The notes: generated by a model not told the origin, from the sequence alone. A stretch of 64,000 bases of DNA from Dehalococcoidales bacterium (GCA_034419075.1 DAOULR010000022.1:2598-66597); one strand, 5' to 3'; positions 13,296 to 33,999 are shown, counted from the stretch's first letter. A program made the numbers and translations.

Positions 13296-14852
13296 TTGGT
13301 GAAGCGGATAGCGGGAATCATTCTTATCCTTACTCTACTTTTATTACTAGGGGTGAGCTGTGATGGGAGTGAGTCTGAGCTCCCTTCTATTCCCGACACC
13401 ACGACCCCTGATACCACGGCTCCCGACACTACGGCACCCTCAATCACAAATGTCTCGGCAGAGAGTATTACCGAATTTACTGCCACCATCAGCTGGACAA
13501 CTGATGAGCCGGCCACCAGCCAGGTGGAGTACGGCACAACCACTGCTTATGGCCTGACTACTCCTTTAGACAGTGAATTGGTTACAAGCCATAGTATTAG
13601 CCTAACAGGGCTTGACCCGGGCAGCACTCATCACTTCATTGCGAAATCAGAAGACCTCGCTGGGAACGAAGCGATCTCAGACGACTATACCTTTATTACC
13701 ATTACAGGCGTGCTTGACCAGCTTGTGGTTCATTTCATTGATGTGGGCCAGGGCGATGCTATTCTAATCGACTACGGCACCAATGAAATGTTGATTGACG
13801 GCGGGAGATGGGGAGACTGTGCCGCCTATGTGCCGAGCTACATTGACGGCGCCCTGGAAGTGATGGTGGCCACTCACCCGGATGCGGACCATATAGGAGG
13901 TCTTGATGATATACTAGATATTTTCGACGTAGAGAATATATGGCTTAACGGAGACACAGCTTCCACTCAGACCTACACTGACTTCATGGCCAAAGTAAAT
14001 GCTGAGGGTGCACAGGTGCATCAGGCACAAAGAGGAGAGCAGATTAGCCTCGGCGACTTGACATTTGACGTTCTGTATCCCACGCTACCCTTGGGCTCCG
14101 ACAAAAATGAGAACTCTATAGTGCTGGAACTGGCCTTTGGCCAGATCGATTTCTTATTCACCGGCGATGTTGAAAGCGGTGGAGAAGCTAGTATGCTGGC
14201 AGCCGGTCTAATTGACGACATCGACATCCTGAAGGTGAGTCACCACGGCTCTAAGTACTGCTCAACCGCGAATTTTCTTGCCGCTGCACAGCCTGAAATA
14301 GCCATCTATTCTGCCGGAGCGAATAATACCTATGGGCATCCGGCTCCTGAGACGATCACGCGCTTATGCGATATTGGGGCAATCATCTATGGGACTGATG
14401 TCCATGGAACCATTGTGGTGACGACCAATGGAACAACTTACGATGTATATCCATCGAACGACGTGCCCCCGGTAGATTGCTCAATTTCGAGCGATATTAC
14501 TCATGACCCCACCATCAATGTTGGTAATAATGTGCAGATCACCAACATCTTCTATGACGGCCTCGTTTACCGCACAGAGTCCGATGAATATGTAGAGATC
14601 ACAAACCTCGGAAGCGAACCTCAGGACTTGGCTGGTTGGGTTTTAAAAGATATATCTGATGATGGTCCCTCATTTACCTTTCCCTCTTATGTCTTAGACC
14701 CGGGTGAAAAGACACGGGTTTACACGAATGAAATTCATGAAGGCTGCTTTAGTTTTGAGTATGGTCAAGCGATTTGGCAAAATGATCCCCCTCATGATGT
14801 CGCCGCACTATTTAATGAACATGGCATAGAAGTATCCAGAATGAGCTACTAG
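13296..14852 (+). CDS. Secreted FN3 / ComEC-type metallo-beta-lactamase / lamin-tail-domain protein (possible extracellular nuclease)
   Basis: 518 aa. Signal peptide, PDTT(T/A) repeat linker, FN3-like segment. MBL motifs DVGQGDAILI, HPDADHIGG, SHHGS. C-terminal LTD-like VEITNLGSEPQDLAGWVLKD. Confidence 0.7.
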   Translation: MVKRIAGIILILTLLLLLGVSCDGSESELPSIPDTTTPDTTAPDTTAPSITNVSAESITEFTATISWTTDEPATSQVEYGTTTAYGLTTPLDSELVTSHSISLTGLDPGSTHHFIAKSEDLAGNEAISDDYTFITITGVLDQLVVHFIDVGQGDAILIDYGTNEMLIDGGRWGDCAAYVPSYIDGALEVMVATHPDADHIGGLDDILDIFDVENIWLNGDTASTQTYTDFMAKVNAEGAQVHQAQRGEQISLGDLTFDVLYPTLPLGSDKNENSIVLELAFGQIDFLFTGDVESGGEASMLAAGLIDDIDILKVSHHGSKYCSTANFLAAAQPEIAIYSAGANNTYGHPAPETITRLCDIGAIIYGTDVHGTIVVTTNGTTYDVYPSNDVPPVDCSISSDITHDPTINVGNNVQITNIFYDGLVYRTESDEYVEITNLGSEPQDLAGWVLKDISDDGPSFTFPSYVLDPGEKTRVYTNEIHEGCFSFEYGQAIWQNDPPHDVAALFNEHGIEVSRMSY

Positions 14853-15054
14853 AAAACTCAATGCGGACTTTGCCTACCCGTTGACACCTCTCAGACTGCT
14901 GCCCTATTATTATCGAGAAGGCGCTGCCTTTTACAGCGGATTTTGCCTTGCCATTTGGCGAATTGTCCACTAAAGGTGGCGCCTTCGATTTCGGAAACAA
15001 AACCTGCAAAAAATGAGACTTGAAAAACCCGTGGAGGAATAATCCGTTGAGTTT

Positions 15055-15255
15055 TTAAGCTCCGAAACATTTGTCAAAGAGCGGGATAAATGTTGCCAAC
15101 CATAGAACACACGAAAAGCTAAAGAAAATCCAAGCAATAACTTTGAGACTGCTTCCAACTTCAGGAATGGTAATTAGCGTTAACCAGAAAGCAAAAAACA
15201 GAGTCCCCCATGAAAAAGGATTGAAGGTTAGTCTAGGCCTAATTGAGGTAACCAT
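15055..15255 (-). CDS. Small two-TM membrane protein (66 aa), hypothetical
   Basis: GGAGG 7 nt upstream of the ATG. Two clear hydrophobic helices. Same strand as, and downstream of, the ATP-grasp operon. Confidence 0.35.
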   Translation of the reverse strand: MVTSIRPRLTFNPFSWGTLFFAFWLTLITIPEVGSSLKVIAWIFFSFSCVLWLATFIPLFDKCFGA

Positions 15256-15324
15256 ATATAACCTCCATCTTTCTTAGTACTGAAGTCAAAATGGGGTATA
15301 AAAGACCGGCCAACATAACATACG

Positions 15325-15942
15325 CTATAAAACACTCACTGCGAATAGGACAAACATAATACCGAGTGATATTACGGCATAGAAAATACTGCGATAGGCG
15401 GAATACACATAATTATTACGAATAATATTTAGATACACATTTAATTCGGTATATAATGCTATCTTTTCGATCTTATCTTTTTCTGGTAATCGCATTTGTT
15501 TTGGAAACAACTGGTATACTTTATTTTTACTCCCCAATACTTCAAAAGACATGTAGCCCGCCATGATGAAGTAGCACAACGAGATAACACCAAAAGCAAT
15601 AACCCATGATTGTAACGGACTCACACTTAACTCTTCACTTACAAGTAAAGAACCTCCTAACCCGGTCATTAAAGAAACAGCAATTGTTAACCCGACTACA
15701 CTTATTCGTGCCTTACTTTCCAACGCTTTCATTTGTTCGACGGATTTATCATAGAATTCCTGGACTTCCCCAATTGTCAAGACATCCGATCCAGCCATAT
15801 ACCCAAATTTCATCTTTTGGTCTCCCAACAATTGCATCTTTTTCTCTACGAGATCATTCGCATGTCTGCAATTGAGAATTGGAAATAGGAAACAAGAAGT
15901 CATGAACACCATATTCCATGCCGATTTGATAAAGCTAGGCAT
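15325..15942 (-). CDS. Membrane protein (205 aa, 3-4 TM), hypothetical; translationally coupled to the ATP-grasp gene
   Basis: ATG overlaps the ATP-grasp stop by 8 nt. Hydrophobic helices at approximately residues 90-115, 120-150 and 180-205. Confidence 0.6.
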   Translation of the reverse strand: MPSFIKSAWNMVFMTSCFLFPILNCRHANDLVEKKMQLLGDQKMKFGYMAGSDVLTIGEVQEFYDKSVEQMKALESKARISVVGLTIAVSLMTGLGGSLLVSEELSVSPLQSWVIAFGVISLCYFIMAGYMSFEVLGSKNKVYQLFPKQMRLPEKDKIEKIALYTELNVYLNIIRNNYVYSAYRSIFYAVISLGIMFVLFAVSVL

Positions 15943-16915
15943 TTCCTAGCTCCAATAGATTACATAGTGTTTCGTGTAAAGGAATTCCGGCCGCATGGAC
16001 TAGCCAACCCCATTCTCCAGTAGGATTTATCTCAAGAAAATATATTTTATCGTCTGATTCTATCAAGTCGACAGCTCCGAAGGTTAATCCTAACGAATGT
16101 ACTAGGTTCACACATGCCTGAGATACTTCTTCAGGCAACGTGCATTCAATGAATTGGACCCCTTCTTTAATTCTTCTCCAGTCCCCTTCAACACCACTAC
16201 CATTTAATAGTATCTTTACAGGGAATATTGAATCTCCTATAACAGTAACCCTAATATCGGTCTTTGGGCGAAGATAATCCTGAATGATAACTGGCGCTAT
16301 CGACAATTCTGCAAGTTCCAGTTCGCTTCCTTTGACCACATTTGAATATACAAAGGCTTCCTTATCTTCAATCCTCAATACAGCTGTATCTATCGACTTG
16401 ATGATGTAAACTGAATCACTCTTGATATTCTCAGGGCATCTATTCGCTACAAGGGTCCTCGGTAATTGAAAACCAGCATTTTTGGCGTATTTTAGTTGTA
16501 GCAGCTTGTTTTCTGCTTTGAATGTAGCTATTGGATTATTGATCCATAGCGGATTTTCAAAGATTGCCAGGTTTCGGATAAAGGCAGCCCATTGTGTACG
16601 ATACAATTGTGTTTCTTCGGAAATATCAGGTTGATAAATGTCCCTCAGGTATATTGGAGCACGAAAATATATAGCTTTCAGATTCGGTTCTGAAAGGAAG
16701 AATCTCATATTGCTTTGTTCAATAAGTAGAGTTACGGAATCTATATCAAATGTCATCGAACATTCCGCAAACTTATCTCTATTAATCCTGAGGTAGTTTT
16801 GTTTTCGCTCACTGAGTTCAACGGTTATGTAGTCTGTGGTGTAATCTAGTGTGTCAGAAATAATTAATATCTCGGGCTCATTCACCTTTTCGATCTTCCC
16901 CTGTCTCAACATCAC
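15935..16915 (-). CDS. ATP-grasp peptide ligase, MdnC/MvdD (graspetide maturase)-like
   Basis: 326 aa. N-terminal ILIISDTLDYTTDY, KLLQLKYAKNAGFQLPRTL, DWRR, and C-terminal GLTFGAVDLI..IYFLEINPTGEWGWL closely follow my recollection of the microviridin ligase pattern. True start may be 16912 or GTG 16885. Confidence 0.8.
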   Translation of the reverse strand: MMLRQGKIEKVNEPEILIISDTLDYTTDYITVELSERKQNYLRINRDKFAECSMTFDIDSVTLLIEQSNMRFFLSEPNLKAIYFRAPIYLRDIYQPDISEETQLYRTQWAAFIRNLAIFENPLWINNPIATFKAENKLLQLKYAKNAGFQLPRTLVANRCPENIKSDSVYIIKSIDTAVLRIEDKEAFVYSNVVKGSELELAELSIAPVIIQDYLRPKTDIRVTVIGDSIFPVKILLNGSGVEGDWRRIKEGVQFIECTLPEEVSQACVNLVHSLGLTFGAVDLIESDDKIYFLEINPTGEWGWLVHAAGIPLHETLCNLLELGNA

Positions 16916-17084
16916 ATTTTTTCGTTTCCAGCTTAGGGTGGTCTTTTAATGTAACTAGTGGCTGTGCGTTTTTGTCAGAGACCCAAAATCCTTTATCGGT
17001 ATCGAAGGTGCATCCAAATGGAGGCGTTGGATCCTTAGGCAGAGGGTATATGTAAGCTTTCTCTAGGAGTAAATGATTATTCAT
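16878..17084 (-). CDS. 68-aa peptide, candidate ATP-grasp substrate (graspetide precursor or C-terminal-Glu carrier)
   Basis: GGGAGG SD. Sits immediately upstream of, and overlaps, the ligase gene. C-terminal KLETKKCDVETGEDRKGE is rich in Thr/Lys and Asp/Glu. Confidence 0.55.
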   Translation of the reverse strand: MNNHLLLEKAYIYPLPKDPTPPFGCTFDTDKGFWVSDKNAQPLVTLKDHPKLETKKCDVETGEDRKGE

Positions 17085-17146
17085 AATTCACCTCCCGGCA
17101 AATTTATAAAAATAATGATCGTCTCTCGTATTTTAACACTAATTCT

Positions 17147-17174
17147 ATTATAGTAGAACAAATGATAAATACAA
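17147..17174 (-). promoter_or_regulatory. Putative sigma70-type promoter of the peptide/ATP-grasp operon
   Basis: Minus strand reads TTGTAT-16 nt-TATAAT, about 60 nt upstream of ATG 17084, inside a 149-nt AT-rich gap. Confidence 0.35.
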
Positions 17175-17233
17175 CAAAGTGACGATTTGCGCACTCACAA
17201 CAGCAGTTAGCAACCATTGTAATGATAGACTTT

Positions 17234-18028
17234 CTACTCGAGTTCACTTTGACTTCGTATTTTCTTCATAATTGACCGTCGCCCCAAGTAAAAATTGGTA
17301 GCACTGCTGTCAGCATTCCGAGCTTTCTCAAGCACTTCTTGAATTTTTTGTTGGTCGGCTCCTTCCTTTTCCAGTCTATACGCCTCATGTAAGTAGGGCA
17401 GAGCCGGGCTCAATTCATCTGGAAAGGGAGTTTTAATTGAATCTTCGAATACTCTCTGCCAATCATGACGGGCGTAAGATCTGGTAACTTCACCGCCTTG
17501 TCGGTAATTAACTACGTCTCTGGAGGATTGTAGTCGCCTCCCTGCAGGTGAGCTAGGCCTATCTGAAGGTACTTCAACTGATTGTTCCAGAGTTGTGTTT
17601 TCTAGTTCCCCTTTTCCTTCAATTACCCAACCACTCGGAACATAATCGGGCGGTATTTGGTATGCCTCGTCAGAGATGCGAACCCACAACACCCTCGATA
17701 TTTTAAATGTTCTCTGCGCACTTCGATAGTGACAATAGGCATCAAAATATTCGCTCCCGAGACCGTAAATGTTGATATCCCTCACTTTTATCGCTGGTTC
17801 CCCAGGCATTGGGTTGCCAGTTTCATACTCCATCGTTACACGAAGCTTTCTTGTGTATCCTAATCGGAGTAACTCAATTGTTTTGCTCTTTGTAACCTGA
17901 GCTTTGCCGGAGAATTCGGCAGTAGTCAGGTGACGAGATGCGTTTTGAGAAGGTCTTCTTCTTTGACTAAGCCAAATCACTAGAGTTACGAGGGCAACTA
18001 ATAGAATGACAATCCAACCCATTTCCAA
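17234..18028 (-). CDS. Membrane-anchored WYL-like domain protein
   Basis: N-terminal TM helix (GWIVILLVALVTLVIWL). Core ..VRDINIYGLGSEYFDAYCHYRSAQRTFKISRVLWVRI.. resembles the WYL domain (aromatic-x-L...RxFrxxRI). Likely ATG start at 18022. Confidence 0.6.
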   Translation of the reverse strand: MEMGWIVILLVALVTLVIWLSQRRRPSQNASRHLTTAEFSGKAQVTKSKTIELLRLGYTRKLRVTMEYETGNPMPGEPAIKVRDINIYGLGSEYFDAYCHYRSAQRTFKISRVLWVRISDEAYQIPPDYVPSGWVIEGKGELENTTLEQSVEVPSDRPSSPAGRRLQSSRDVVNYRQGGEVTRSYARHDWQRVFEDSIKTPFPDELSPALPYLHEAYRLEKEGADQQKIQEVLEKARNADSSATNFYLGRRSIMKKIRSQSELE

Positions 18029-18042
18029 TTATCTCCATTGCC

Positions 18043-21000
18043 TCAAAGAGGGCGAGTGTACCGACATTGGTTCTCTGTGTCCTTGTATCCAGAGCACCCT
18101 AAAAATACTCCTCTTCGGCCCCACCTAATTTCCATCTCTCTTCCGCATTTCGGACAAATCGTAGCATCTGGAATTAGAGCTTGTTTAAGGTCTTCTCGCT
18201 TCACATTTGCAGTTGAATTACACCTTTCACACTTGTAGAATGGCCCAAATCTCCCTCGTGGTATAACCTTCATTTTATGGCCACAATTGCTGCACAATCT
18301 TGAGGGAACCTTGCTCGGATTGATAGCTGGGGATAAACTGTCACCAGCCTCCCCCGGCATTTGCAGCCCACACTCATCCATGACCTGTTTGGTGAAATCT
18401 TCATTCTCCAGACGAAACATAAGTTCCTGCGTGTTCTTGTGCGAGAGCGCGTTTAGGCTGCCGAACCAGACCAGTCGGCCATCTACGACTATCACCTTCT
18501 GGTGCATTGAGGATCGCTGAATTACTTTGGCTCCAATCTGTTCAAGGTAGTTGAGCATTTTCTGGATTTCGCCATGGTCTGCGGTCCCTTGTTGATGAGG
18601 CGGGCGTGTTACTAATTCCACATTGATGCCTTTCTCCACCTTTGCTCTGAGTAAATCAACATATGTGCTGAGGCGATTCTTTGTGATAAATGGGCTCATA
18701 ATAATGATATATCGCCCGGAATTTTCCAAATCGTATCGGAGCCCAGAATGAAAATCATCCTCTGTCCAAAACGAACTAACCGCGCTGCTCTTTTCTTTTA
18801 AAGGCCAGAGTGTTTCCCGTGCTTGCCGTACCGCTTGGTCAGCGTAACCTGGCACCAGTTGGTCAGCCGCAAATGTTGGAAGTGGGGTAGATTCATCGAA
18901 TAGCACCTTGCTTAGTGACCACTCCCTATTTAATCGGGATTGTAGAAATGACAGGTTAGCAATGATAGCCAGCTTCTTTTTAGCTCGGCTGCAAGCAACA
19001 TTGATTAGACGTGCACCTGCTGAATCATCGACGTCTTCGGAATCTATCTTACCTTTAAGGAGCTTACCTATACGAAGACCTGTGCTATCTACGAGGTCGC
19101 ATATTATTAGTTCACGTTCACTACCTTGGAAACGGTGGACATTTGAGACCGTTACTTTATCTTTCAGTAATGAATCAATTTCTACCAAGGCCTTTATTAG
19201 ACGTGTCTGGGCTTTGTAAGGCGTTATTATTCCGATATCGGTGAAATTTCGAATCGCACTTTGGCATAGTTTTACTGCCAGAACAGCGTGGTAAAGATTA
19301 AATCTCGAATAACTACTGGTCCAGCTGCACCACGGGTCTATTGCAGATGTATCATACACACCAACACATGTGCCAGGACAGGGTTGGTATGATCTTACTC
19401 TAGGTTCCCCAGAAATGCCGTCTCGTAACTTGTCATTATAGAAAACGCTACTCACTATGGCTCTTATCTCTGGCTGCATCCTATATTGAGTTCTTAGCAT
19501 TACCATCGGGGAGTTCCCCATCTGCTCAAGTTCCGATTCTTTATCTATGCCTGCAGCCACATATATATCTCTACGCAACCACTCTTTAACTCTGCTATCA
19601 TCGCTCAAGGCTATAGGTGCCAATTGGCGGAAGTCGCCAGCAATGGTGATAGACCTCGTGGCCAAACTACACACCCAGTAGAGTGCCGGTATCCCGGCCA
19701 TACTGGCCTCGTCACAAACAATGGTGTCAAATTGCCTACCATATACCTCGTTCATGGTGCATGTTCTGGCAAGCGTAGTTGCTATTAACACCGCCTCATC
19801 TATTATCTGCTGCCTCATTTCTTCGATTTGCCACTCCAACTCAGTTATTTGGGTACGCAAATCTTCAATTTTTGCCCGTATGCCGGCAATCTCGCCTTCG
19901 AGAGTATCAGGTAATAAGGATTCCTGCTTTAGCTTACCCTCAATTTCGTTTACTTCAACGCGAAGTCTATTCAGTTTGCTTGTTGATTCCTTGAGATTTC
20001 CCTCCACTTTAGATTTTTGTTCAATCAACTCATTACGTTTTACCGCTAGATTGGAAATAGAGTATTCTATTCTGCTAATCGACATTCCTCTAAGGAACCT
20101 CGCGATACCTGACATCGCCTTTGTTTTCTGAAGACGGTTTTCTTCCTGCTCAAACTTCCCCGTTACACCAGATATCTTATCTCGTAAAGCCTCTATGGAA
20201 CTTTCCAACTCAGTATGAGAAGCCTCTTCTTGAGCAATTAGCTTTTTCGATGCTTCCCATTTCTCCAGTTGGCTTCTGAGTGCCTGTAATGTCGTAAGTC
20301 TGGTCTCCGTGTCGGTCAATTGCGCACGTAACTCAGAAAGTTGCTCTCTTAAAGGCCCACTCTTTCGCTCCGTGATTTTATCAAGATTGAGATTATCATC
20401 ATCTCCAATTTCTGAGATTTGAGGCGTGCCGAGCCTTAGGATACGCCCTTCTCGATAATGTTCGGTTTCCTGCAGCGGCTTCAAACAAGCTATCAGTGCC
20501 TGATCGATGGCAACGTTGGTATTAGCAGTGAGCAAAACACTCCGTCCGCACTGTATCATGCTTGCTACAGCAACTCCTACAGTGGTAGTCTTTCCAGTGC
20601 CTGGAGGACCCCATATATAACAAATCTCGCTCCCCAGGGCTTGTCGAATGGCTTTTTGCTGGTCTTCATTTAGTTTACCCCATTGCTCTTGTAGGTTTTG
20701 CCCTGGAATGAAAGACTCATTGATTTGGTATTGGAATTGTTTGCGTCTCAAGCATTTTTCGGCGATTATACAAGAAGCATCCTGTAAGGTATCAAGGCGT
20801 TCCGACAAACGTTCGAGAAGGTAATATGGCTGTGCTAGTATACGAGCTGACGGGACATACTCTCCCAGATCACTTTCTATCGCAACTAATATCTGGTTTC
20901 CTGAAACTCCAACAATATGGCCAGATGCGTCTGAGCTCGCTGTACGTACTAATACCGGAGTTTCATCAAAGGCGCCTGATAGAGTTGGGTCATCTAAGAT

Positions 21001-21135
21001 GAAGCTATATACGTATAGCGGTCCCCTTACCTCGACAAGCCTCCCGGCACGTACATCCCACCTAGCGGCGCCCTTTTTCTTCTGTTCCTCTATTTCAACT
21101 GCAAGGGCGTTTTTAAATTCGTTGATTATGCTCAA
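18043..21135 (-). CDS. SF1 (Upf1/DNA2-like) helicase with coiled-coil insert, C-terminal PLD-family nuclease domain and two topoisomerase-type Zn ribbons
   Basis: 1030 aa. Walker A GPPGTGKTT, DEASM, ~200-aa heptad-rich insert, HQKVIVVD...GSLN (HxK-x4-D PLD motif), CxxC...CxxC ribbons at the C-terminus. Confidence 0.85.
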   Translation of the reverse strand: MSIINEFKNALAVEIEEQKKKGAARWDVRAGRLVEVRGPLYVYSFILDDPTLSGAFDETPVLVRTASSDASGHIVGVSGNQILVAIESDLGEYVPSARILAQPYYLLERLSERLDTLQDASCIIAEKCLRRKQFQYQINESFIPGQNLQEQWGKLNEDQQKAIRQALGSEICYIWGPPGTGKTTTVGVAVASMIQCGRSVLLTANTNVAIDQALIACLKPLQETEHYREGRILRLGTPQISEIGDDDNLNLDKITERKSGPLREQLSELRAQLTDTETRLTTLQALRSQLEKWEASKKLIAQEEASHTELESSIEALRDKISGVTGKFEQEENRLQKTKAMSGIARFLRGMSISRIEYSISNLAVKRNELIEQKSKVEGNLKESTSKLNRLRVEVNEIEGKLKQESLLPDTLEGEIAGIRAKIEDLRTQITELEWQIEEMRQQIIDEAVLIATTLARTCTMNEVYGRQFDTIVCDEASMAGIPALYWVCSLATRSITIAGDFRQLAPIALSDDSRVKEWLRRDIYVAAGIDKESELEQMGNSPMVMLRTQYRMQPEIRAIVSSVFYNDKLRDGISGEPRVRSYQPCPGTCVGVYDTSAIDPWCSWTSSYSRFNLYHAVLAVKLCQSAIRNFTDIGIITPYKAQTRLIKALVEIDSLLKDKVTVSNVHRFQGSERELIICDLVDSTGLRIGKLLKGKIDSEDVDDSAGARLINVACSRAKKKLAIIANLSFLQSRLNREWSLSKVLFDESTPLPTFAADQLVPGYADQAVRQARETLWPLKEKSSAVSSFWTEDDFHSGLRYDLENSGRYIIIMSPFITKNRLSTYVDLLRAKVEKGINVELVTRPPHQQGTADHGEIQKMLNYLEQIGAKVIQRSSMHQKVIVVDGRLVWFGSLNALSHKNTQELMFRLENEDFTKQVMDECGLQMPGEAGDSLSPAINPSKVPSRLCSNCGHKMKVIPRGRFGPFYKCERCNSTANVKREDLKQALIPDATICPKCGREMEIRWGRRGVFLGCSGYKDTENQCRYTRPL

Positions 21136-21141
21136 TGCTGA

Positions 21142-24100
21142 TTACTCCACCGGCCACCCCGGTATCAATTCGTCAATCTCCGTCATCAACCGGATGGTCT
21201 CCTTAAGCGCTACAATGACCTTCTGATAGTGTGCAGAGTCATCGTAGGTCAATATCCTGCCCTTGCGGTCTTTGAGCCATTTCTGAGCAACTTGGTAGCC
21301 GCCGACGTGGAAATCCCAAACTTCTGCCGGCACACCTTCGAAGTACTGTGACTTGTTGATATTGACACGCCGGTTGTTGTCATCGTAGCTTACCTTTTCA
21401 ACCTCGTCGGAGCCGGTGACAGGATAGCGCGTGATGGGCTCACCCAGCGCAGGCGATTCCATGAGGTGCAGGGCTACCAGCTCGGCGCCCTTTGCCGCCA
21501 GCGCCTTGAACAGTTTTTTATCCGAGGTGAGCGGCAAGCGCGGGAAGTCTATCTTTAGAAACTCTGCATACCGGCTGCGGTAGGTAGGCGAGTGGAAGAC
21601 GGCGTAGGCGTAGTTGAAGATATCTTCCGGGCCAAAGGTTTCCTTAAGGTCTCCCCGGCCATCTTCAACAAATTTCAACCCCAGCTTCTCTTGAACAGCC
21701 TTGATGAACTCCGGGTTTAGATTGGGACGGCGTTTACCGCCTTCAAACTGCATCTCGCCTTTGGTGGAGTAAAGGTATAGTGGAAAGAGATAATCTTGCC
21801 CCTTGTTACCGAGATAAAAGGTACCGTGACAATTAGGATGTTCAGAGACCCCGAAATACGAATATTCTCCGCCAACTGTCTGTCGCATGGTGATTAATCC
21901 AAGGTTTTCTCTATTAATAAAATGGGACATTATTTCTGAGCGTGGTCGCCCGAGAAATCCGCTGCTTTTGCCTGTAAAATACGTCCAGCGGAAATCGAAG
22001 GGTCGGTACAAAATAGGGACGACACTCTCTTGCTTAATACCAAAATTCTGGAGATCCCTTTTTGCACTATTGATAGTCCAACCTGAAGTGTCGGGACCGA
22101 GATCAAAGTGCTCACGCGCATCTTCACTATCAAGGTCTGAAAATTTCTTTACCACCTTCAGCATTGTGTCGGCATCATCTTGTATTGCTAACTTATCTTT
22201 TTTCGTTTGAATACCAGAACTATATTGGATGAATACCTTGTTGATTACCGGATAGTAATTATATTCATCGTGAGTTGTGTCATCCATAGGGCAGAAGTAG
22301 AAATATGGCGAATTAACGTTAAGAGCTTCCCATTCGGTGGATTGAATAGAATTTGACTCAAGATACTCATATTTTTCTTCTTTGGGCCCAAACAATTCAT
22401 AATATTTAACACTACAGTCTTTTTCGGATGCTCCGACACTATCGGTTTTCACCATCAATATTATTGTGACTCCCTGTTGGATTGCGAAAACATTTTCATC
22501 AGTGACGTCAGCGGGTACTGATCTAGATGCCATAGTACTTCCATGTAAATTAAGTATATAAATCGAATTAAACGTGTTATACAATGAATATCGCATAACC
22601 CTGCTTGCTATCCCGTCAAGGAAGGAATTATTAATAATAAATCCTATAATACCCTTCCCAGTTTTTTCTATACGCCAATCTGCAAATCTGAGGAATTTCC
22701 ATTCTTCTCTATTGAGGTCGAACTTCTTTTCAGTCAAACCTTCTTTATATTTTTCCAAGAGATCCATAATCCACGCGCCTTCAAAAATGGAGCTTGAATA
22801 CGGCGGGTTGCCCAGTACCACCATTATCGGCTCATCTTTCTTAATCCGGGCGGCGGCGTTGGATTCCTCGGTTATCCACTGGGCAAACAGAGTTTCGGAG
22901 TGCTTGATTGCCTCCTCTAGCGTGTTGGTAAGATAAATACCCAGGCGCTGGTCGCTCTGGAACTCGTAGCCCGTCTCCTGCAGCAAGAGCCCGAGCTTGA
23001 GGTGAGCCACGGCGTAAGGTGCCATAAGCAGCTCGAAGCCGAAGATGCGGGGCAGTAGCTTCTTGGCCACATAGTTATTCCACATCCCTTCCTGACCCGT
23101 GAAAGACTGACGAATCTCGTTAACTACCATGTACAGGAAGGTGGCCGTACCCACCGCCGGGTCAAGGATGAGCGCCTTATCATCAGCCAGCCCTTGCGGT
23201 TTGTTGAAGCGGGTCTTCAGTAGGTGGTCGATTGAGCGGACAATGTAGCTGACTACCGGCTCCGGCGTGTAGTAAACGCCGCGCATCTCCCGTACCTTGG
23301 AGTCATAAGCAGTCAGGAAGGTCTCGTAGAAATGCACCACCGGGTCTTCCTTGCCGCTGTGCTTGCCGAAGTCTTTAAGAACCGCCTCCATATTCGCCTG
23401 GTCTAATACCTGTGCTAGGTCGTCGACCAGCCAGGCGATGCGGTCATCAAGGTCAGGTCCGGCGATGTTATTGAAAAGCTTGCGCAGGAACGGGTTTGTC
23501 TTCGGCAGGAGATAGGCGGCATTCTGGCGGGTAAAGTTCTTTTCCTCCGGGTGCGTGCACCGGGCGGCAAACAGGCCGTAGACGATGGTCTGAGCATACA
23601 TGTCGGCAAACTGCCCTGCAGAGAGGTCGGGAATTAGGTTATCGCGAAATGCCGCTAGCTGCACATGGAGATTACCACTTTTCGGCTCTTTCTCAAAGGC
23701 GTTGACGATAAGCTCTCTAATCATGTGTGCCAGGCGAGCCATTCGTAGCGCCAGTTCTTTCGGTGTGCCAACAGCCTCGGCTTTGTGAGCGAGAAAATTA
23801 CCAAGCAGCTCGACAACTGACTGAGCTCCATTGCTGTCGCGCTTGACTTTGCCATCTTTAGTTAGCGTGCCCAAACGTGCCGAAAATCGACGTTTGCCGT
23901 CTACATACCAGCGGAATTCGAGGTAATCAGTCAAGATGAGGTTGGTGAGCGGAGCAAGGTAACGCTTGAATCTTTCCCCGTCCGGCCCTTTCCCGCGCTC
24001 AATATCGTCCAGGCTCTTACCAACATCCTTGGCCTCTATATAGCCAACTTTAAGAGCACCCTTGGTAACCAGAAAGTCAGGGGCACCACATGCAATTCGT

Positions 24101-24267
24101 CGAGGCTCGTTGGTGGCGGTGATTCCCTCAGCCAGACTCTCCACCAGAGCTTCCAGCGCAGAGCGGTGGGTATGCTCGGTAGAATCGCCGGTGGCGAGTT
24201 TCCTCTCAATGGAATGTATGTAGTTTTGCACTAGCTTCACGTTATTTGTTATTTCTTCTCGGTTCAT
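21142..24267 (-). CDS. Type IIG-like restriction-modification enzyme (PD-ExK nuclease + gamma-class N6-adenine methyltransferase + C-terminal specificity region)
   Basis: 1041 aa. N-terminal GAPDF..x12..GYIEAKD (PD...ExK), motif I LDPAVGTATFL, motif IV GNPPY. The C-terminal VWDFHVGGYQVAQKWLKDRKGR block is known from type ISP/YeeA-like enzymes. Confidence 0.8.
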   Translation of the reverse strand: MNREEITNNVKLVQNYIHSIERKLATGDSTEHTHRSALEALVESLAEGITATNEPRRIACGAPDFLVTKGALKVGYIEAKDVGKSLDDIERGKGPDGERFKRYLAPLTNLILTDYLEFRWYVDGKRRFSARLGTLTKDGKVKRDSNGAQSVVELLGNFLAHKAEAVGTPKELALRMARLAHMIRELIVNAFEKEPKSGNLHVQLAAFRDNLIPDLSAGQFADMYAQTIVYGLFAARCTHPEEKNFTRQNAAYLLPKTNPFLRKLFNNIAGPDLDDRIAWLVDDLAQVLDQANMEAVLKDFGKHSGKEDPVVHFYETFLTAYDSKVREMRGVYYTPEPVVSYIVRSIDHLLKTRFNKPQGLADDKALILDPAVGTATFLYMVVNEIRQSFTGQEGMWNNYVAKKLLPRIFGFELLMAPYAVAHLKLGLLLQETGYEFQSDQRLGIYLTNTLEEAIKHSETLFAQWITEESNAAARIKKDEPIMVVLGNPPYSSSIFEGAWIMDLLEKYKEGLTEKKFDLNREEWKFLRFADWRIEKTGKGIIGFIINNSFLDGIASRVMRYSLYNTFNSIYILNLHGSTMASRSVPADVTDENVFAIQQGVTIILMVKTDSVGASEKDCSVKYYELFGPKEEKYEYLESNSIQSTEWEALNVNSPYFYFCPMDDTTHDEYNYYPVINKVFIQYSSGIQTKKDKLAIQDDADTMLKVVKKFSDLDSEDAREHFDLGPDTSGWTINSAKRDLQNFGIKQESVVPILYRPFDFRWTYFTGKSSGFLGRPRSEIMSHFINRENLGLITMRQTVGGEYSYFGVSEHPNCHGTFYLGNKGQDYLFPLYLYSTKGEMQFEGGKRRPNLNPEFIKAVQEKLGLKFVEDGRGDLKETFGPEDIFNYAYAVFHSPTYRSRYAEFLKIDFPRLPLTSDKKLFKALAAKGAELVALHLMESPALGEPITRYPVTGSDEVEKVSYDDNNRRVNINKSQYFEGVPAEVWDFHVGGYQVAQKWLKDRKGRILTYDDSAHYQKVIVALKETIRLMTEIDELIPGWPVE

Positions 24268-24272
24268 ATAGA

Positions 24273-24713
24273 CTACTCACTAATACCTAAAATAGCGGCC
24301 GCTTTTTCTATGAACCTCTCCGCTGAAGCAATAACCGCCTTCGCTCCAGATTGAGAAAAATTAGCTTCGTAATCGGCCGCTTCACGAAGATTCATGGCAT
24401 TTAGGAAGTCACGAACTGACTGGGCTTCCATTGTGCCCTCGTCTACAAATAGCGCTCCCAAAGCTACCGCCAGACAGTAATGGCTCTTCTCGCGGTATCC
24501 CTGAGAATAAACAAGTGCTCTGGCGGCATGGAACATGGCATAGTAGGCTTGTATAGTCGACCACTTATAGCGTCCATTTTCATAGCCTGCTTTTGCATCC
24601 GACAGGTCACTTCTGGCTACTGACAACTCCTTCTTAACCAGGTTTTTACCCCTGGCGAAGGAAACTATCTTCTTATTCTCAAGACACTGCTTAAACTCTC
24701 GATTCACTGGCAA
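24273..24713 (-). CDS. HEPN domain protein (toxin-like partner of MNT)
   Basis: 146 aa helical protein. Overlaps the upstream nucleotidyltransferase gene by 23 nt, the classic MNT-HEPN arrangement. Confidence 0.7.
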   Translation of the reverse strand: MPVNREFKQCLENKKIVSFARGKNLVKKELSVARSDLSDAKAGYENGRYKWSTIQAYYAMFHAARALVYSQGYREKSHYCLAVALGALFVDEGTMEAQSVRDFLNAMNLREAADYEANFSQSGAKAVIASAERFIEKAAAILGISE

Positions 24714-25257
24714 CTCTTTCCCATAGCACGATGCCGCGTTCGACTTCTTCCATGAAAGCCCGTTCTGATTCCTCCCCCTCTAACAGCTCGACAGGCGTCT
24801 TAATTACTGATTGAATATGAATATCCTCGTATCCCCTCGGGAATTTGAACTTACTAATAGTATTTGACACGCTTTCCCTGTGGTTCGATACCACGAATAA
24901 ATCGAGATCACTCTCAGAGGTATCTGTCCCTAAGGCACAGCTGCCGTATAACACTATGCGGTTTGATATCTTCTTTAGCTCTTCTACCAATGGTTCAATA
25001 AGCATGAGGTTTATCATTTTCTTTAACTCGATGACAGCAGAAGCCGAGGAATCAATCGAATAGAAAAACATCTTGCCTTCCCGGCGGCGGGTGACAGCAC
25101 CGGTCGAATAAAGCTCATTCAGCGTCCGGTTTGCTGATCCTGAAGATATTCCAAGCTTACGAACCAATTCTCGTTCATAGAATTCTTGGTCTGAGAATTT
25201 CGCCAGCAGGCCCAGCACTTTCTGGTTGCTTGTAGCGATTAGATGTGGTTTCAACAT
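24691..25257 (-). CDS. Minimal nucleotidyltransferase (MNT) with N-terminal winged-helix domain
   Basis: 188 aa. LYGSCALGTDTSESDLDLFVV matches GSxxxGxxxxxSDxDL. Confidence 0.8.
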   Translation of the reverse strand: MLKPHLIATSNQKVLGLLAKFSDQEFYERELVRKLGISSGSANRTLNELYSTGAVTRRREGKMFFYSIDSSASAVIELKKMINLMLIEPLVEELKKISNRIVLYGSCALGTDTSESDLDLFVVSNHRESVSNTISKFKFPRGYEDIHIQSVIKTPVELLEGEESERAFMEEVERGIVLWERVASESRV

Positions 25258-25543
25258 GTGCCATTTGCTCCAAATATTGAGTATATGCTCATTGTAGTGA
25301 GCAATAGAAGGAAAGTCAAGACCCTGTATAGGATTATGGCAATGGCTTACTTATTGCACAAAACTGACTTTTGTTCAATCTCGCCGCGTTCAATAGAAAA
25401 TCATAAAATGGTATATCAAGAACGCACTAAATTATCGAACCTTTAACCTAGGGGAAATGAATCATAAAAGCTATAGTAGAGCCTACCCCCCGAGAGGTTT
25501 TACACTATCTGGAATCGCGTCGAGTTACTCTTGGAAGTGCCGT

Positions 25544-25600
25544 AATTCTTGATACTTTCTTGACCATCCCAACCAATTTCTTGACACCTCTTTGACTTCC
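25544..25600 (-). promoter_or_regulatory. Operator copy 1 (four TCAAGRA half-sites, spacing 11/21/11) upstream of usp
   Basis: Reverse complement GGAAGTCAAAGAGGTGTCAAGAAATTGGTTGGGATGGTCAAGAAAGTATCAAGAATT aligns with copies 2 and 3. Sits 130 nt from ATG 25730. Confidence 0.7.
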
Positions 25601-25729
25601 ATGAAGATAAAATCAGAAGGTGATATTCATAAATCCCCTGAACTGTCTGACCATACGGCTAGGCTGTTCCTAGGAGAACTGACTGGAGAAGAAAGGTCTA
25701 TGGCCGTAAATCTGTAGAAAGCGAGTAGA

Positions 25730-26200
25730 ATGCTAGAGAAAATTCTTGTATGTTTGGACGGTTCCGAGTTAGCCGAGGCGATTCTACCCCTAGTGACAGA
25801 TTTAGCTAAACGGCTCGGTAGCGAGATTGTGCTCCTTAGGGTGCTTGTTAAGCCGACTTGGCTTTCTGGTTTGGGAGAGACTGTAATTGAGCCTAAGCAA
25901 TCTACCGACATGTCAGAACAAGAGGTCAATATAGATGCATACTTGGAACGCGTGGCCAGGCTATTATGGGAAAAAGGATTGGATGTTGAATGCGAGACTA
26001 TAGAAGGCCCAATCGGTGAGTCCATCGTTACCTATGCCAAAACGAACGAAGTAAGCCTGATTGCTCTCGCAACTCACGGTCACGGTAGACTTAAAAAACT
26101 CGCCCTAGGTAGTATAACTGATTTTGTACTTAGAAAGTCCGGGATCCCTGTCATTTCGATTAGTCCGGTTAGTACGTCAGTCAGACATCCAACAGTCTAA
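25730..26200 (+). CDS. Universal stress protein (UspA family)
   Basis: 156 aa. ILVCLDGSELAE...ALATHGHGRLKKLALGSITDFVLRKSGIPV. Confidence 0.85.
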   Translation: MLEKILVCLDGSELAEAILPLVTDLAKRLGSEIVLLRVLVKPTWLSGLGETVIEPKQSTDMSEQEVNIDAYLERVARLLWEKGLDVECETIEGPIGESIVTYAKTNEVSLIALATHGHGRLKKLALGSITDFVLRKSGIPVISISPVSTSVRHPTV

Positions 26201-30486: not shown

Positions 30487-30524
30487 TTAAAAAAGAGGGC
30501 CGAGAATTCTCTCGACCCTCTTTA
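30487..30524 (-). terminator. Hairpin terminator after the last gene of the element (possibly bidirectional)
   Basis: AGAGGGCCGAGA-attc-TCTCGACCCTCT stem flanked by an A-run (T-run on the minus strand). Confidence 0.6.
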
Positions 30525-30536
30525 GCTTTAACGATG

Positions 30537-31022
30537 TTAGAACTCGAACAACGCCGGCTGCTCCGCTTTTCTCTTAGTTGCCTCCTCCTCTTTCTCCTGC
30601 CTTCTCTCGGCCTTCTCCCTCTCCAGCCTGGCCTGGGTTCTCTTACGATAGAGCCATTCCTTCAGCCGATTCAGTTCTGCCAGCTGGTAATCATTGATTG
30701 AGTCCACGACGATATCGCCGGGCATCTCACTCTTACCCCACCGGCGACAGGTCTTGGTGGCGATGTGGAGGTAGATTTGGGTCCAGTCGCTGTCTATTGG
30801 CTGTGCCAGAGAGACAGTCATAAGGTAGGCGCAGACTTCGGCGTCGGTGCCGGCAATCTCCTCACCCCTGATTGCCCTGATGTTTATCTCCAGCCTCTCC
30901 AAGGTGACGGCCGTTTTAAGCCACTCGGGCAGAGTGTCTCCCCAACCCCCGGGGAAAACGATGATGGGATCGGTCAGGCACCCCACCAGCTCGGAGATGC
31001 CCTGTTCCATAGTCTTATTCAA
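30537..31022 (-). CDS. Hypothetical protein (161 aa) with charged C-terminal helix
   Basis: ORF track. Last gene of the minus-strand block. No family recognised. Confidence 0.5.
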   Translation of the reverse strand: MNKTMEQGISELVGCLTDPIIVFPGGWGDTLPEWLKTAVTLERLEINIRAIRGEEIAGTDAEVCAYLMTVSLAQPIDSDWTQIYLHIATKTCRRWGKSEMPGDIVVDSINDYQLAELNRLKEWLYRKRTQARLEREKAERRQEKEEEATKRKAEQPALFEF

Positions 31023-31087
31023 TTGTCCTTCTCACCTCCCTTTTAGTCTGATTTTGGGCATAGTAACCCTTTCAATCCTTTGCAGCC

Positions 31088-31384
31088 TTAAATCATCGAC
31101 TGCTGGCTGCCGTACTCCATGACCTTGCGCTCCTCCTCCAACGCTTCCTTGGGTATGAGGTTGCGGATGCGCTCGACGTAGCCCTTCATGTAGGTGTTGA
31201 AGCTATCCACTTTGGAGGCCATAGTGGCCGCGGGCTGGTCGATATACCCCGGCAGATGGGGTATTCGCTTAAGCTCCTCGGCTTTCTCACGGATTAGCCA
31301 CAGAGTCGGCCTGATGGAACTCATAAGCTCCTCGACCTCATCGGCATTACGGCTCACGCTGACCGTGCTCCACTTTATAGGCAC
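31088..31384 (-). CDS. Hypothetical protein (98 aa)
   Basis: ORF track. Co-directional. No family recognised. Confidence 0.45.
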   Translation of the reverse strand: MPIKWSTVSVSRNADEVEELMSSIRPTLWLIREKAEELKRIPHLPGYIDQPAATMASKVDSFNTYMKGYVERIRNLIPKEALEEERKVMEYGSQQSMI

Positions 31385-31433
31385 AAAATCACCTCCTTTC
31401 TGGGCATAGTTGCCCGTCCGATTCCGTCCTTGT

Positions 31434-31643
31434 TTAGTTAGCCGAGGGCGACATCATCCGTTTCATCATGGCGTCGAGAGCCTGCTTGACCAGCCACTCG
31501 CCCAGGCACTTCTCGTCGCACCAGGCTCCCAGCGTTAGCGGGACTTGCTGGCGCTCGTCGGTCAGCACCATAGCATCACGCTTCATGAAGTTGTCCTCAG
31601 GCAGCTCCTGGTTACAGTTGAGACAGTGAAGCTCCTCCATCAC
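31434..31643 (-). CDS. Hypothetical small protein (69 aa) with CxxC
   Basis: ORF track. GGAGG upstream. CLNC...C..C cysteines. Confidence 0.4.
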   Translation of the reverse strand: MMEELHCLNCNQELPEDNFMKRDAMVLTDERQQVPLTLGAWCDEKCLGEWLVKQALDAMMKRMMSPSAN

Positions 31644-31811
31644 TCGACCTCCTTTCCAGGTATTTCTTGGCTCTGGCCACAGAGAGGTAATCAGGGCACT
31701 TCTGGGAGCACCGGTGGCTGTGCCCCTTAAGACACCCCCTACAGAGCCAGTAGCACTTTCGCCTGTTGGGGCGACGGTAATTCAAATTCACCCCCTTCCA
31801 GCCACAAAAGA

Positions 31812-31882
31812 GGGGGTATCACTCCCACGCTTGGGGAGCGATACCCCCTTAAAAAAGCAAAAAAGCGGGGTCTCCCCCGCCT
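31812..31882 (-). terminator. Two tandem hairpin terminators downstream of the clamp gene
   Basis: Minus strand has GCGGGGGAGACCCCGC followed by TTTTTTGCTTTTTT. It then has the GGGGGTATCGCTCCCC/GGGAGTGATACCCCC hairpin followed by TCTTTTG. Confidence 0.55.
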
Positions 31883-31917
31883 TTCTGCGTGGCTCTTTTG
31901 TTTGGGCTGTAAGCGTT

Positions 31918-33126
31918 CTATTTGGCTTTAACTGGCTGTTTGGCTCGTCTAGGCTTTGCTTTAGGCTTCTCGGCTACTGGCTCGGTAGCCTCTGGCTGAC
32001 TCTCGGCTGGCTCGGTGGCAACCTCGGCTTTGGCTTGTTCGGCTTTAGCCTTTACCTCTGCCTGCGCCTCTGGCGTCAGCATCGGCATTACCACCAGTTG
32101 ATAGCCGTCAACGGTAAAGAGCAGTGGCGATACGCCGTTGGTGAGCTTAAGCTCCACCATACCCCCACAAGCCTTGAGGGCGTCGGCAAGATACTTGCCG
32201 TCCACCCTTATTCTGACCGTCTCACCGAGGGTGTCGGCTGCTAGCTCGGCTTGACCCTTATCATCGGGGTTAGCCATCACCAGCCTGCCTTCGCCAGCGG
32301 TGAGGTCAATCGGGTAGGCTTTGCTGTCGGATATGGCTTTGAGCGAGCTAACCGCCTTGATTGCCTCTACCGTGTCAAAGTGAACGAAGGTGCTAAACTC
32401 GGTAGGTATCAGCTTCTCATAGTCGGGGAAGTTACCCTCAAGGCTAGCCCACTTGTAGCGGATTAGCTCGGTGTCTATGGTGAGCGTCTTGATGTCCTCA
32501 CCGTCAAAGCTAACCCTCGCCCGCTTGGCTCTCCGCAGGGCATTGGCTATGCCCTGAAGCTCGTCACGGCTTATCAGAGCTTGCCCCTCTCCATCCTCGT
32601 AGTCAAGGCTTGTTACCGCCAGCCTGAAGCCGTCGGCACTGACCAGAGTCAATTTACCGTCTTTAGCCACCAAGCTGACACAAGCTAAAACAGGTCTATC
32701 GTCATCGGTGGCGGTAAACGGCAATACCCTTGACAGCGCCTCTGATAGCTCTAGGCTGCCGATGTTGGGCTTGACCGAGTTGTTGGGGCTGACCCTGACC
32801 TCGCAGAGGCTCATCGGCGTCTTATCGCCAATCCATTCGCTATCGGCAAGTTGGCTGGTATTAGCTCCGCAGATTACCTTAAGCCTCTTGTGTCCGTTAG
32901 CCTGCGACCCGCTAGCACTACCGTTAGACGGTATCACCTTGACGATGTTACTACCGCCCAAAGCCTTAAGGTATCCGAGTAAGCCTTTGCGCCCTATGGT
33001 CAAGTCCATAAGCATTACCCTTTCGGCTAACGCTCTGGACAGAGCGCCTACCAGCACAGCCTTGTGAGCGACAAAGCCGTCGCCTGAACGCTTGCCCACG
33101 ATATTAAGTTGTTCTATTTTAATCAC
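31918..33126 (-). CDS. DNA polymerase III beta (DnaN)-like sliding clamp with Ala/Glu/Lys-rich C-terminal tail
   Basis: 402 aa. TDDDRPVLACVSLVAKDGKLTLVSADGFRLAV, GNFPDYEKLIP and YQLVVMPM match clamp domain II/III landmarks. The last ~50 aa are low-complexity. Confidence 0.7.
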   Translation of the reverse strand: MIKIEQLNIVGKRSGDGFVAHKAVLVGALSRALAERVMLMDLTIGRKGLLGYLKALGGSNIVKVIPSNGSASGSQANGHKRLKVICGANTSQLADSEWIGDKTPMSLCEVRVSPNNSVKPNIGSLELSEALSRVLPFTATDDDRPVLACVSLVAKDGKLTLVSADGFRLAVTSLDYEDGEGQALISRDELQGIANALRRAKRARVSFDGEDIKTLTIDTELIRYKWASLEGNFPDYEKLIPTEFSTFVHFDTVEAIKAVSSLKAISDSKAYPIDLTAGEGRLVMANPDDKGQAELAADTLGETVRIRVDGKYLADALKACGGMVELKLTNGVSPLLFTVDGYQLVVMPMLTPEAQAEVKAKAEQAKAEVATEPAESQPEATEPVAEKPKAKPRRAKQPVKAK

Positions 33127-33257
33127 CCCTTTGGCTATCCGATAGTGGGCAAGGCTATCGGCTTCGCCTAGTAGTAAGCTACCGTCTAGCTGCGACTCGC
33201 TAGCCTAAACGGTGCTTCCACTATATACAGGGCATCGGGAAGGTCAAAACCTTTCAC

Positions 33258-33716
33258 TTAAAATAACTCTTTTTGCTCTCTTTGCCTAAATCGGCAAAGG
33301 TAAATCATATCGGCATTGGTTAGCGGTATCCCCTTGAGCCTCTTACCCGCTATGACTATCAGCCTCATCGGGCAACCGAGTAAAAAGGTTCTGGCATCCA
33401 GCCAAGCGTCAAGGTCAATCGCCTTATCATCGGATAGAGTGTCTATCAGTTCAACGCCATCCCCATCGTTTAGCTCGGTATTTAGGCTCAAGATGGTCAA
33501 CAGCCTCTTTTGCTGTCGCCAATACTTCTGGCACTCGTAAGAGGCTACCCGCAGCATAGCTACATCGGACAATTGACCGCCACCGTTGTTATCTTTGGCT
33601 GTTTGGGCTTGGGCAAGGCTCAATACAATGGTATGATTTAAGTCCTCCGTGTCCTGCGCCTTCGCCTTGTATTGAAACCTGTCGGCTACTGCTATATACT
33701 TGCTCCAGTCTAGCAT
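33258..33716 (-). CDS. Hypothetical protein (152 aa), possible HTH at C-terminus
   Basis: ORF track. No confident family. Confidence 0.45.
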   Translation of the reverse strand: MLDWSKYIAVADRFQYKAKAQDTEDLNHTIVLSLAQAQTAKDNNGGGQLSDVAMLRVASYECQKYWRQQKRLLTILSLNTELNDGDGVELIDTLSDDKAIDLDAWLDARTFLLGCPMRLIVIAGKRLKGIPLTNADMIYLCRFRQREQKELF

Positions 33717-33999
33717 TGTGGTTCACCCCGCTTTGTTAGACTTGCCCTAGCTCGGCTAATCACTGGCTAGGGCATTTTGTTTGGGGCAAGCGTTCAGGTT
33801 GGGCTTTATTCGGTTGTTAAGGTTCAATTGCTTTAGCTTGATTATTGAACAAAAAGGTATAAAGTGAAATCAGTAAAAGCAATTGCATTATTCCCTCCCC
33901 CGAGGCGGAACCAGGGTTTTAGAGAAAAAGTAACTCTAAAGGCGGTTAAGGGGAAGACGAAGAGATATTGCTTGGAGGACTGGGCAGAAAGTCTCCCGG

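Follow-up and report, generated by a model that had tools for sequence, protein, structure and literature searches.

The best fold and PDB-profile matches of the protein analysed here are BrxR, CapW, PafBC and DriD, regulators in which a winged helix-turn-helix (wHTH) precedes a WYL domain and a WCX domain follows it, and which belong to defence or DNA-damage loci. The present work concerns a 64,000-nucleotide stretch of DNA from a Dehalococcoidales bacterium (GCA_034419075.1 DAOULR010000022.1:2598-66597, called the window below), in which a 262-residue protein with the same WYL fold is encoded, likewise in association with defence genes. Unlike those regulators, it has neither wHTH nor WCX: a transmembrane (TM) helix forms its N-terminus, and an unrelated four-helix domain its C-terminus, behind a disordered linker. 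As both flanking domains are absent, the protein stands outside the wHTH-WYL-WCX regulator family. Its gene and the helicase-nuclease gene directly upstream form a conserved pair, and we propose below that it may serve that enzyme as a membrane-tethered accessory.

WYL domains also occur on helicases. That of the Pif1 helicase of Thermotoga elfii (TePif1) serves as an accessory module: it binds single-stranded DNA (ssDNA) and links ATPase activity to unwinding (10.1101/163188). The differences with PIF1-WYL are that the WYL domain is carried here on a separate, membrane-anchored polypeptide, and that the helicase is Upf1/DNA2-like and joined to a phospholipase D (PLD) nuclease. Mokosh type II was reportedly defined by Millman et al. 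in 2022 as a helicase and a PLD in one protein; the helicase of the window likewise unites, as MkoC does, an AAA_11/AAA_12 helicase and a PLD in one polypeptide, but it has in addition two Top1-type zinc ribbons and a dedicated membrane-anchored WYL partner. In the Mokosh and WYL literature that could be searched, neither a membrane-anchored WYL partner of Mokosh nor a mechanism of Mokosh was described.

In their layout, an N-terminal TM segment followed by a cytoplasmic sensor and encoded in a defence locus, Cam1 and the TM-CARF effectors of type III CRISPR are the nearest parallel (PMC10808066). Compared to Cam1, the sensor is WYL and not CARF, and some family variants lack the sensor domain; no cyclic-nucleotide synthase or Cas10 was found around the gene in the window or around its counterparts in the loci with annotated neighbours. 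Two other defence systems can be compared: WYL1, the accessory protein of Cas13d, is soluble and has a ribbon-helix-helix domain, and ZorD, of the Zorya system, has helicase-nuclease activity. WYL1 is described (PMC5935466) as a small WYL protein that positively modulates Cas13d; like the TM-WYL protein it is encoded beside a nucleic-acid-targeting effector, but this partner is a HEPN RNase and not a helicase-PLD protein. In Zorya, a membrane-embedded ZorAB is paired with the soluble ZorC and ZorD (PMC11946911), which by analogy may be taken as a precedent for membrane-linked nuclease defence. A membrane-anchored WYL protein was not described in the literature that could be searched, and the 2014 survey of CARF and WYL domains mentions a membrane-associated CARF, but no membrane-associated WYL.

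The gene and the parts of its product, as obtained from the open reading frame (ORF) list, homolog alignments and an AlphaFold2 (AF2) model with its per-residue confidence (predicted local distance difference test, pLDDT), are the following.

17234..18022, minus strand: gene of the TM-WYL protein with its C-terminal domain (CTD), 262 aa; stop codon 17234-17236, start ATG 18022-18020 (ORF list and translation)
18033..18036, minus strand: Shine-Dalgarno-like GGAG, 10 nt 5′ of the ATG, within the 20-nt gap behind the helicase stop (read from the sequence)
17960..18016, minus strand: N-terminal TM helix, residues 3-21, predicted N-out/C-in (Kyte-Doolittle mean, AF2 helix, RRR after the helix, conservation in homologs)
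17618..17902, minus strand: WYL domain, residues 41-135, made of a helix, a five-stranded barrel and a conserved tail Y-x-I-P-x-x-Y-x-P-x-x-W-V (Pfam, PADLOC, PDB profile, Foldseek)
17468..17617, minus strand: disordered linker, residues 136-185, variable in length and poorly conserved (pLDDT 27-31; gap-rich alignment columns)
17237..17467, minus strand: CTD of four helices, residues 186-262 (pLDDT 84-96)

The ORF was first listed as 17234..18028 on the minus strand, with a TTG start and a translation opening L-E-M-G-W. The true start is the ATG at 18022, two codons downstream of the listed TTG and 20 nt past the end of the 1030-aa gene that precedes it. A database protein (P0001), identical to the 262-aa product, opens with MGWIV, and an N-terminus M/V-G-W-I/V is shared by about 70 homolog clusters. 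As these clusters begin at the same residues, we concluded that the protein is 262 aa long and includes the TM helix; the possibility, left by a preliminary description of this locus, that translation starts downstream of the helix is set aside by the ATG at 18022 together with this conserved N-terminus.

That description had also recognised a WYL-like core behind a single TM helix, and both elements were recovered. For the core, profile and structure searches alike return WYL. The window protein matches the PADLOC WYL model at 9.5e-6; the Pfam WYL model is matched at E<=0.01 by 40 of the 44 aligned homologs (best 2.3e-8), and a profile built from 44 family sequences retrieves from the PDB PafBC (6sj9, E=1.2e-4) and PafC (7p5x, E=2.6e-3). 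In the profile alignment, the characteristic strands are YFDAYCHYRSAQRTFKISRV in the window protein and YFEAYCHSKAGVRNFRLDRV in PafBC. The WYL signature, in which R-x-F-[KR]-x-x-R-[IV] comes after an aromatic triad (W/Y-Y/F-x), is present, with EYFDAYCHYRSAQRTFKISRV aligning to WYFEAYCHSKAGVRNFRLDRV of PafBC; the window protein and the wHTH-WYL-WCX regulators share both strands, the aromatic "WYL" one and that with R-x-F...R-[IV]. The AF2 model (mean pLDDT 70.7, and 78-94 over the WYL domain) contains the helix and the Sm/SH3-like five-stranded beta-barrel that characterise WYL domains, namely a helix at residues 41-57 and strands at 60-67, 78-88, 92-97, 102-107 and 111-120. When this model was compared to the PDB with Foldseek, 30 of the 30 top matches were WYL proteins, CapW (7tb5) being the best at 1e-4, followed by PafBC, BrxR and DriD. 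Residues Y66, T68, R81, Y86, G87, Y92, C97, R100, R104 and F106 are invariant in the 44 sequences. Judged by profiles and models, the WYL identity is weak for the window sequence alone and firm at the level of the family.

As for the membrane anchor, residues 3-21 are the sole strongly hydrophobic stretch of the protein (Kyte-Doolittle mean over 19 residues of 2.59 at residue 1), the AF2 model places a helix there, and an N-terminal TM segment is present in 80 of the 87 clusters of the family. The seven TM-less clusters begin later: within the WYL region, a little ahead of it or in the linker, and in one case (P0054) after the linker. Positions G2, W3 and I9 of the TM helix are conserved at 90% or more in the 44-sequence family alignment. 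Orientation was predicted with the positive-inside rule: since no charge precedes the helix and QRRRP follows it, the N-terminus is predicted to face outwards, and the remainder of the protein the cytoplasm. A cleaved signal peptide was considered and judged unlikely, given the lack of a positive n-region, the RRR cluster right after the helix and the cytoplasmic partner.

No HTH was found anywhere in the protein by Pfam, NCBIfam, PADLOC or fold searches, in agreement with what had been noticed beforehand, and the place of an N-terminal wHTH, residues 1-40, is occupied by the TM helix and a disordered segment. Nor is there a WCX domain: the barrel is followed by the short conserved tail, the 50-aa disordered linker and the four-helix domain without structural match. 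What had been taken as a helical region of about 110 aa is thus only in part helical, as AF2 pLDDT and the alignment distinguish a four-helix domain of about 75 aa from about 50 aa of disordered linker. Invariant positions of the CTD are D187, A207, L211, A214, L217, A234, D238, A241, T242, Y245 and R248. No sequence match to the CTD was found in Pfam, NCBIfam, PADLOC or the PDB, and when it was modelled separately (AF2, pLDDT 81) and compared to the PDB, no match was significant, the best Foldseek E being 0.71 and the hits being generic HAT/TPR-like hairpins only.

Two genes lie directly upstream, in the same orientation.

18043..21135, minus strand: partner protein of 1030 aa, a superfamily 1 (SF1, Upf1/DNA2-like) helicase-PLD protein with Top1-type zinc ribbons, Mokosh type II-like (Pfam, PADLOC, motifs)
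21142..24267, minus strand: type IIG/ISP-like restriction-methyltransferase, single-chain, 1041 aa, 6 nt upstream of the helicase gene (Type_ISP_C 6e-93; PADLOC REase_MTase_IIG 5e-278)

Behind its N-terminal domain, the partner has an SF1 helicase interrupted by a coiled-coil insert of about 200 aa, then a PLD nuclease and two Top1-type zinc ribbons (Pfam AAA_11 3e-30, AAA_12 5e-31, PLDc_2 3e-11, Zn_ribbon_Top1 1e-8). The PADLOC models MkoA and MkoC match it at 1e-55 and 1e-42, MkoA over residues 149-744 and MkoC partially, its best stretch being residues 633-906 (profile positions 859-1113), across the helicase-PLD junction; no Mokosh profile was seen to cover the N-terminal 150 residues or so, or the zinc-ribbon C-terminus. 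The catalytic motifs GPPGTGKT, DEAS and HQKVIVVD...GSLN (HxK(x)4D...GSxN) are intact. With a COG1112/Upf1-like SF1 helicase and a PLD in one polypeptide, both with intact motifs, the architecture is Mokosh type II-like. A sub-threshold match to the NCBIfam model "PLuB system helicase-like protein" was also obtained, and a literature search for "PLuB system" gave nothing relevant. In some related loci of Dehalococcoidia and Terriglobia (L001/L002, 6998..9979, and L014, 2981..5979), the helicase and the PLD-zinc-ribbon part were called as two consecutive genes, which corresponds either to a natural split or to a frameshift.

The survey of homologs showed that the TM-WYL gene is almost always located directly downstream of a helicase-PLD gene. 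By tblastn, essentially all fetched loci that keep upstream DNA have a homolog of the window helicase immediately before the small gene. In 44 loci, of which several are redundant, the distance from helicase stop to partner start was 18-76 nt, mostly 19-22. The pairing holds for helicases 62-87% identical to that of the window and also for helicases only 29-33% identical (L001, L016, L025, L032, L039 and L048), in loci that span Dehalococcoidia, Terriglobia and Bathyarchaeia. It is kept by forms of the small protein without CTD (TM+WYL; L006 and L048) or without WYL (TM+CTD; L009). In one locus (L056) the gene order is reversed and the helicase and TM genes are still adjacent, and in another (L012) the upstream gene ends with a DUF559/MTES_1575-type nuclease motif, without PLD. 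The type IIG gene is absent beside the pair in L001, L005, L006 and L014, and the ATP-grasp genes located downstream in the window are likewise absent from other pair contexts. What is conserved as a unit is the helicase gene with the TM-WYL gene, and the type IIG linkage is specific to the window organism. The "defence operon" of the preliminary description is thereby narrowed: the helicase-PLD gene is the conserved partner, while the type IIG gene falls outside the conserved module. Similarly, the placing of the TM-WYL gene as last of its operon is correct for the conserved pair; in the window, no terminator was found 3′ of the gene by a window scan, and co-directional genes resume after 150 nt. 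Promoter-like sites around the operon were, in the same scan, no more than expected by chance.

The TM-WYL family counts 87 clusters at 90% identity among 5.8 billion proteins, one being P0001, identical to the window protein, and 86 being homolog clusters. When 1.84 billion representatives were searched with a profile, 27 matches reached E<=1e-30 and 534 matches E<=1e-3, and among 185,579 species genomes only three loci were detected, in Terriglobia, in Dehalococcoidia and in a metagenome-assembled genome of Bathyarchaeia. Every homolog is metagenomic in origin and the host organism is uncultured; the family is rare and restricted to uncultured sediment lineages. The family of helicase-PLD-zinc-ribbon proteins is represented by more than 575 clusters. 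No full-length helicase-PLD homolog was found on plasmids (tblastn, 72,556 plasmids): the best match, on a Nostoc plasmid, is limited to the N-terminal domain and helicase core, with no match to PLD or zinc ribbons and no sign of a TM-WYL gene among the annotated neighbours. As no relatives of either gene were found on viral contigs, there is no sign of a phage-borne module.

Four forms of the small protein were distinguished: TM+WYL+CTD (about 270 aa), TM+WYL (about 145-160 aa), TM+CTD (about 150-185 aa) and, in a subclade, a two-TM hairpin followed by WYL (about 190 aa), for which a cytoplasmic WYL domain is likewise predicted. Among the helicase-linked forms, only the membrane anchor is constant. 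Soluble stand-alone CTDs of 99-120 aa, with no TM and no WYL, were also observed away from helicases (L055, 4962..5324; L057, 2714..3013), the first of them adjoining a 463-aa ORF that is DUF262/GmrSD-like by eye.

Both domains are also found fused to helicases. P0182 (1169 aa) carries an N-terminal WYL domain (Pfam 1e-7) in front of AAA_11/12, PLDc_2 and two Top1 zinc ribbons; it is 33% identical to residues 3-1030 of the window helicase (E=3e-158), and its WYL domain matches that of the window at E=1e-8. P0250 (1145 aa) is a helicase-PLD-zinc-ribbon protein, 36% identical to the window helicase over the full length, with a CTD at its C-terminus (residues 1084-1143; profile E=7e-13, BLASTP 37% identity, E=8e-12). 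Other combinations include WYL with an SF1 helicase and an MTES_1575/DUF559 nuclease (P0171, P0172, P0178), a DUF4011-helicase-MTES_1575 protein, Hhe-like, with a C-terminal WYL (P0149), UvrD_C with CTD (P0137, P0159), and a WYL domain with C-terminal TM segments (P0125). The closest outside relative of the window WYL domain is that of P0113 (31% identity over 121 aa, E=2e-20), a 650-aa protein with its own N-terminal TM, a PIF1 helicase and a C-terminal WYL which shares the tail Y-x-I-P-x-x-Y-x-x-x-x-W-V; from its predicted architecture, this is a second, independent membrane-anchored combination of helicase and WYL. Taken together, the fusions suggest that this WYL subfamily and the CTD operate with helicase-nucleases, and that the anchor is an addition in the split version.

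We propose, with middling confidence, that the TM-WYL protein, tethered to the membrane and binding nucleic acid, acts as an accessory subunit of the Mokosh type II-like helicase-PLD nuclease encoded beside it. We infer this function from a computed basis, namely the fold, the predicted anchor, the gene linkage and the fusions. The N-terminal helix would keep both soluble domains, WYL and CTD, at the membrane on its cytoplasmic side, the WYL domain would bind ssDNA or ssRNA, as characterised WYL domains do, and the CTD, the WYL domain or both would dock onto the helicase-nuclease. The enzyme would thereby be kept at the inner membrane surface, where phage nucleic acid would enter and which would lie distant from the bulk of the chromosome, and substrate recognition or activation would take place there. 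As the closest WYL relatives sit on helicases (PIF1-WYL, Hhe-like, helicase-PLD), a helicase accessory module binding single-stranded nucleic acid is the role most readily suggested. CapW and DriD bind ssDNA via conserved arginines of their WYL domains (PMC11662680), to which R81, R100 and R104, invariant in the family, may be compared. A role as transcription regulator is not expected, since there is no DNA-binding HTH. For want of an HTH, and with its closest WYL relatives on helicases, the ligand sensor of a BrxR/CapW-style regulator, which was the model behind the preliminary description, is not the best fit.

Several observations weigh against this proposal. Taken alone, the window protein matches Pfam PF13280 at E=0.0067 only (16.8 bits, under the gathering cutoff of 21.8). 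The residues flanking the WYL triad are E and A, compared to the ssDNA-contacting arginines of the CapW RWHVR motif (PMC11662680), and for this reason the mode of nucleic-acid binding may differ from that of CapW. Neither domain is indispensable to the pair, since variants without WYL or without CTD exist. Five helicase-PLD homologs picked blind to their partner (P0285, P0250, P0306, P0280 and P0348) had no separate TM-WYL gene, so that the TM-WYL protein is an accessory of sub-branches rather than a core component. Finally, no TM segment is present in P0182 and P0250, from which it follows that the membrane is dispensable for WYL or CTD to work with a helicase; what the anchor contributes is the weakest point of the proposal.

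A more specific version of the accessory-subunit proposal, which we put forward only tentatively, is that of a spatially restricted immune module, in which the WYL protein would dock the nuclease at the membrane and recognise an invader's single-stranded nucleic acid on its entry or during its first transcription or replication. Alternatively, the same parts may act with the opposite sign of regulation: the membrane protein would sequester or inhibit the nuclease, as a protection against self-damage, until binding of single-stranded nucleic acid or of another infection cue by the WYL domain frees or activates it. The tight gene spacing and strict co-inheritance are in line with such a restraint, as is the existence of stand-alone helicase-nuclease homologs, which implies that the partner is a modulator of activity and is not what makes catalysis possible; a precedent is found in Hachiman, where HamB is reported to keep the nuclease HamA in check until DNA damage is detected (PMC12278908). 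However, fusion of WYL or CTD in cis to the helicase fits poorly with release from a tether, and the TM+CTD variants are devoid of a sensor domain, so we consider this explanation rather unlikely.

It may also be that the TM-WYL protein is itself the effector, as Cam1 is: a ligand, for instance nucleic-acid fragments produced by the helicase-PLD nuclease, would bind the WYL domain and drive oligomerisation of the TM helices and membrane depolarisation, leading to death or arrest of the cell by abortive infection. An N-terminal TM followed by a cytoplasmic ligand-binding domain does parallel the TM-CARF effectors such as Cam1 (PMC10808066), WYL and CARF were first grouped as defence ligand sensors (PMC4012209), and the conservation of G2, W3 and I9, at 90% or more, goes beyond the needs of a passive anchor. 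This is nevertheless quite improbable, as the TM+CTD variants keep the helicase partner without any WYL, WYL and CTD are fused to helicases without any TM, the protein has one TM helix and no extracytoplasmic segment, and no signal-generating enzyme is present in the conserved neighbourhood. Hardly credible is a membrane-tethered transcription factor freed by proteolysis, which the nature of most characterised WYL proteins (BrxR, CapW, PafBC, DriD) would favour but which we rejected as profile and fold searches gave no DNA-binding domain, whether HTH or another, or an unrelated gene lying by chance beside the helicase, which is ruled out by the gene fusions and by an adjacency that spans phyla and domains of life at about 30% helicase identity.

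Other features of the window surround the pair.

13296..14852, plus strand: protein of 518 aa with a purple-acid-phosphatase-N/fn3-like region, a metallo-beta-lactamase (MBL) fold and a C-terminal lamin-tail (PADLOC MBL-type defence nucleases, LmuA-like 5e-19)
15325..17084, minus strand: possible graspetide-type cluster for a ribosomally synthesised and post-translationally modified peptide (RiPP), 150 nt downstream of the TM-WYL gene (ATP-grasp matches)
24273..25257, minus strand: HTH-nucleotidyltransferase overlapping a 146-aa ORF (PADLOC PDC-M05A 1e-22; Pfam NTP_transf_2)
30500..38000, minus strand: phage- or integrative-element-like ORFs (visual reading)

The GC content is 41-48% over the defence genes (14000..26000) versus 55-61% on both flanks, and this low-GC stretch is consistent with a horizontally acquired defence island. 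The 146-aa ORF, HEPN-like by eye, ends 6 nt ahead of the type IIG gene, and with the nucleotidyltransferase it appears to resemble an MNT/HEPN toxin-antitoxin or a candidate defence pair. In the RiPP-like cluster, a 68-aa ORF (16878..17084) with C-terminus ...LETKKCDVETGEDRKGE overlaps the start of an ATP-grasp gene (15935..16915), whose product matches the ribosomal-peptide maturase models TIGR04187 (2e-46) and MvdC (4e-42), both below cutoff, and which is followed by the gene of a 205-aa membrane protein without family match; this cluster is not kept beside the helicase/TM-WYL pair in other organisms. Further along, a tyrosine-recombinase-like ORF (35261..35944), a sliding-clamp-like ORF (31918..33126) and small ORFs were recognised by eye, as well as a long, high-GC, Arg/Gly-rich ORF (35941..37995) that looks partly spurious.

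WYL domains have been studied almost only as sensors in soluble transcription factors. The same fold, anchored in the membrane and coupled to a helicase-nuclease, would represent a different use, that of a localised, trans-acting accessory of an immune nuclease. The survey also defines the CTD as an orphan helical domain associated with helicases, and the TM, WYL and CTD modules, with their natural fusion and split variants, offer an entry point into Mokosh-like systems. If the spatially restricted module were to prove true, degradation would be limited to the site of entry and the chromosome spared, the WYL domain would have its first role as a membrane-localised receptor of nucleic acid rather than as the ligand sensor of a transcription factor, and the pair would constitute an unrecognised, multi-component Mokosh-like defence common to bacteria and archaea.

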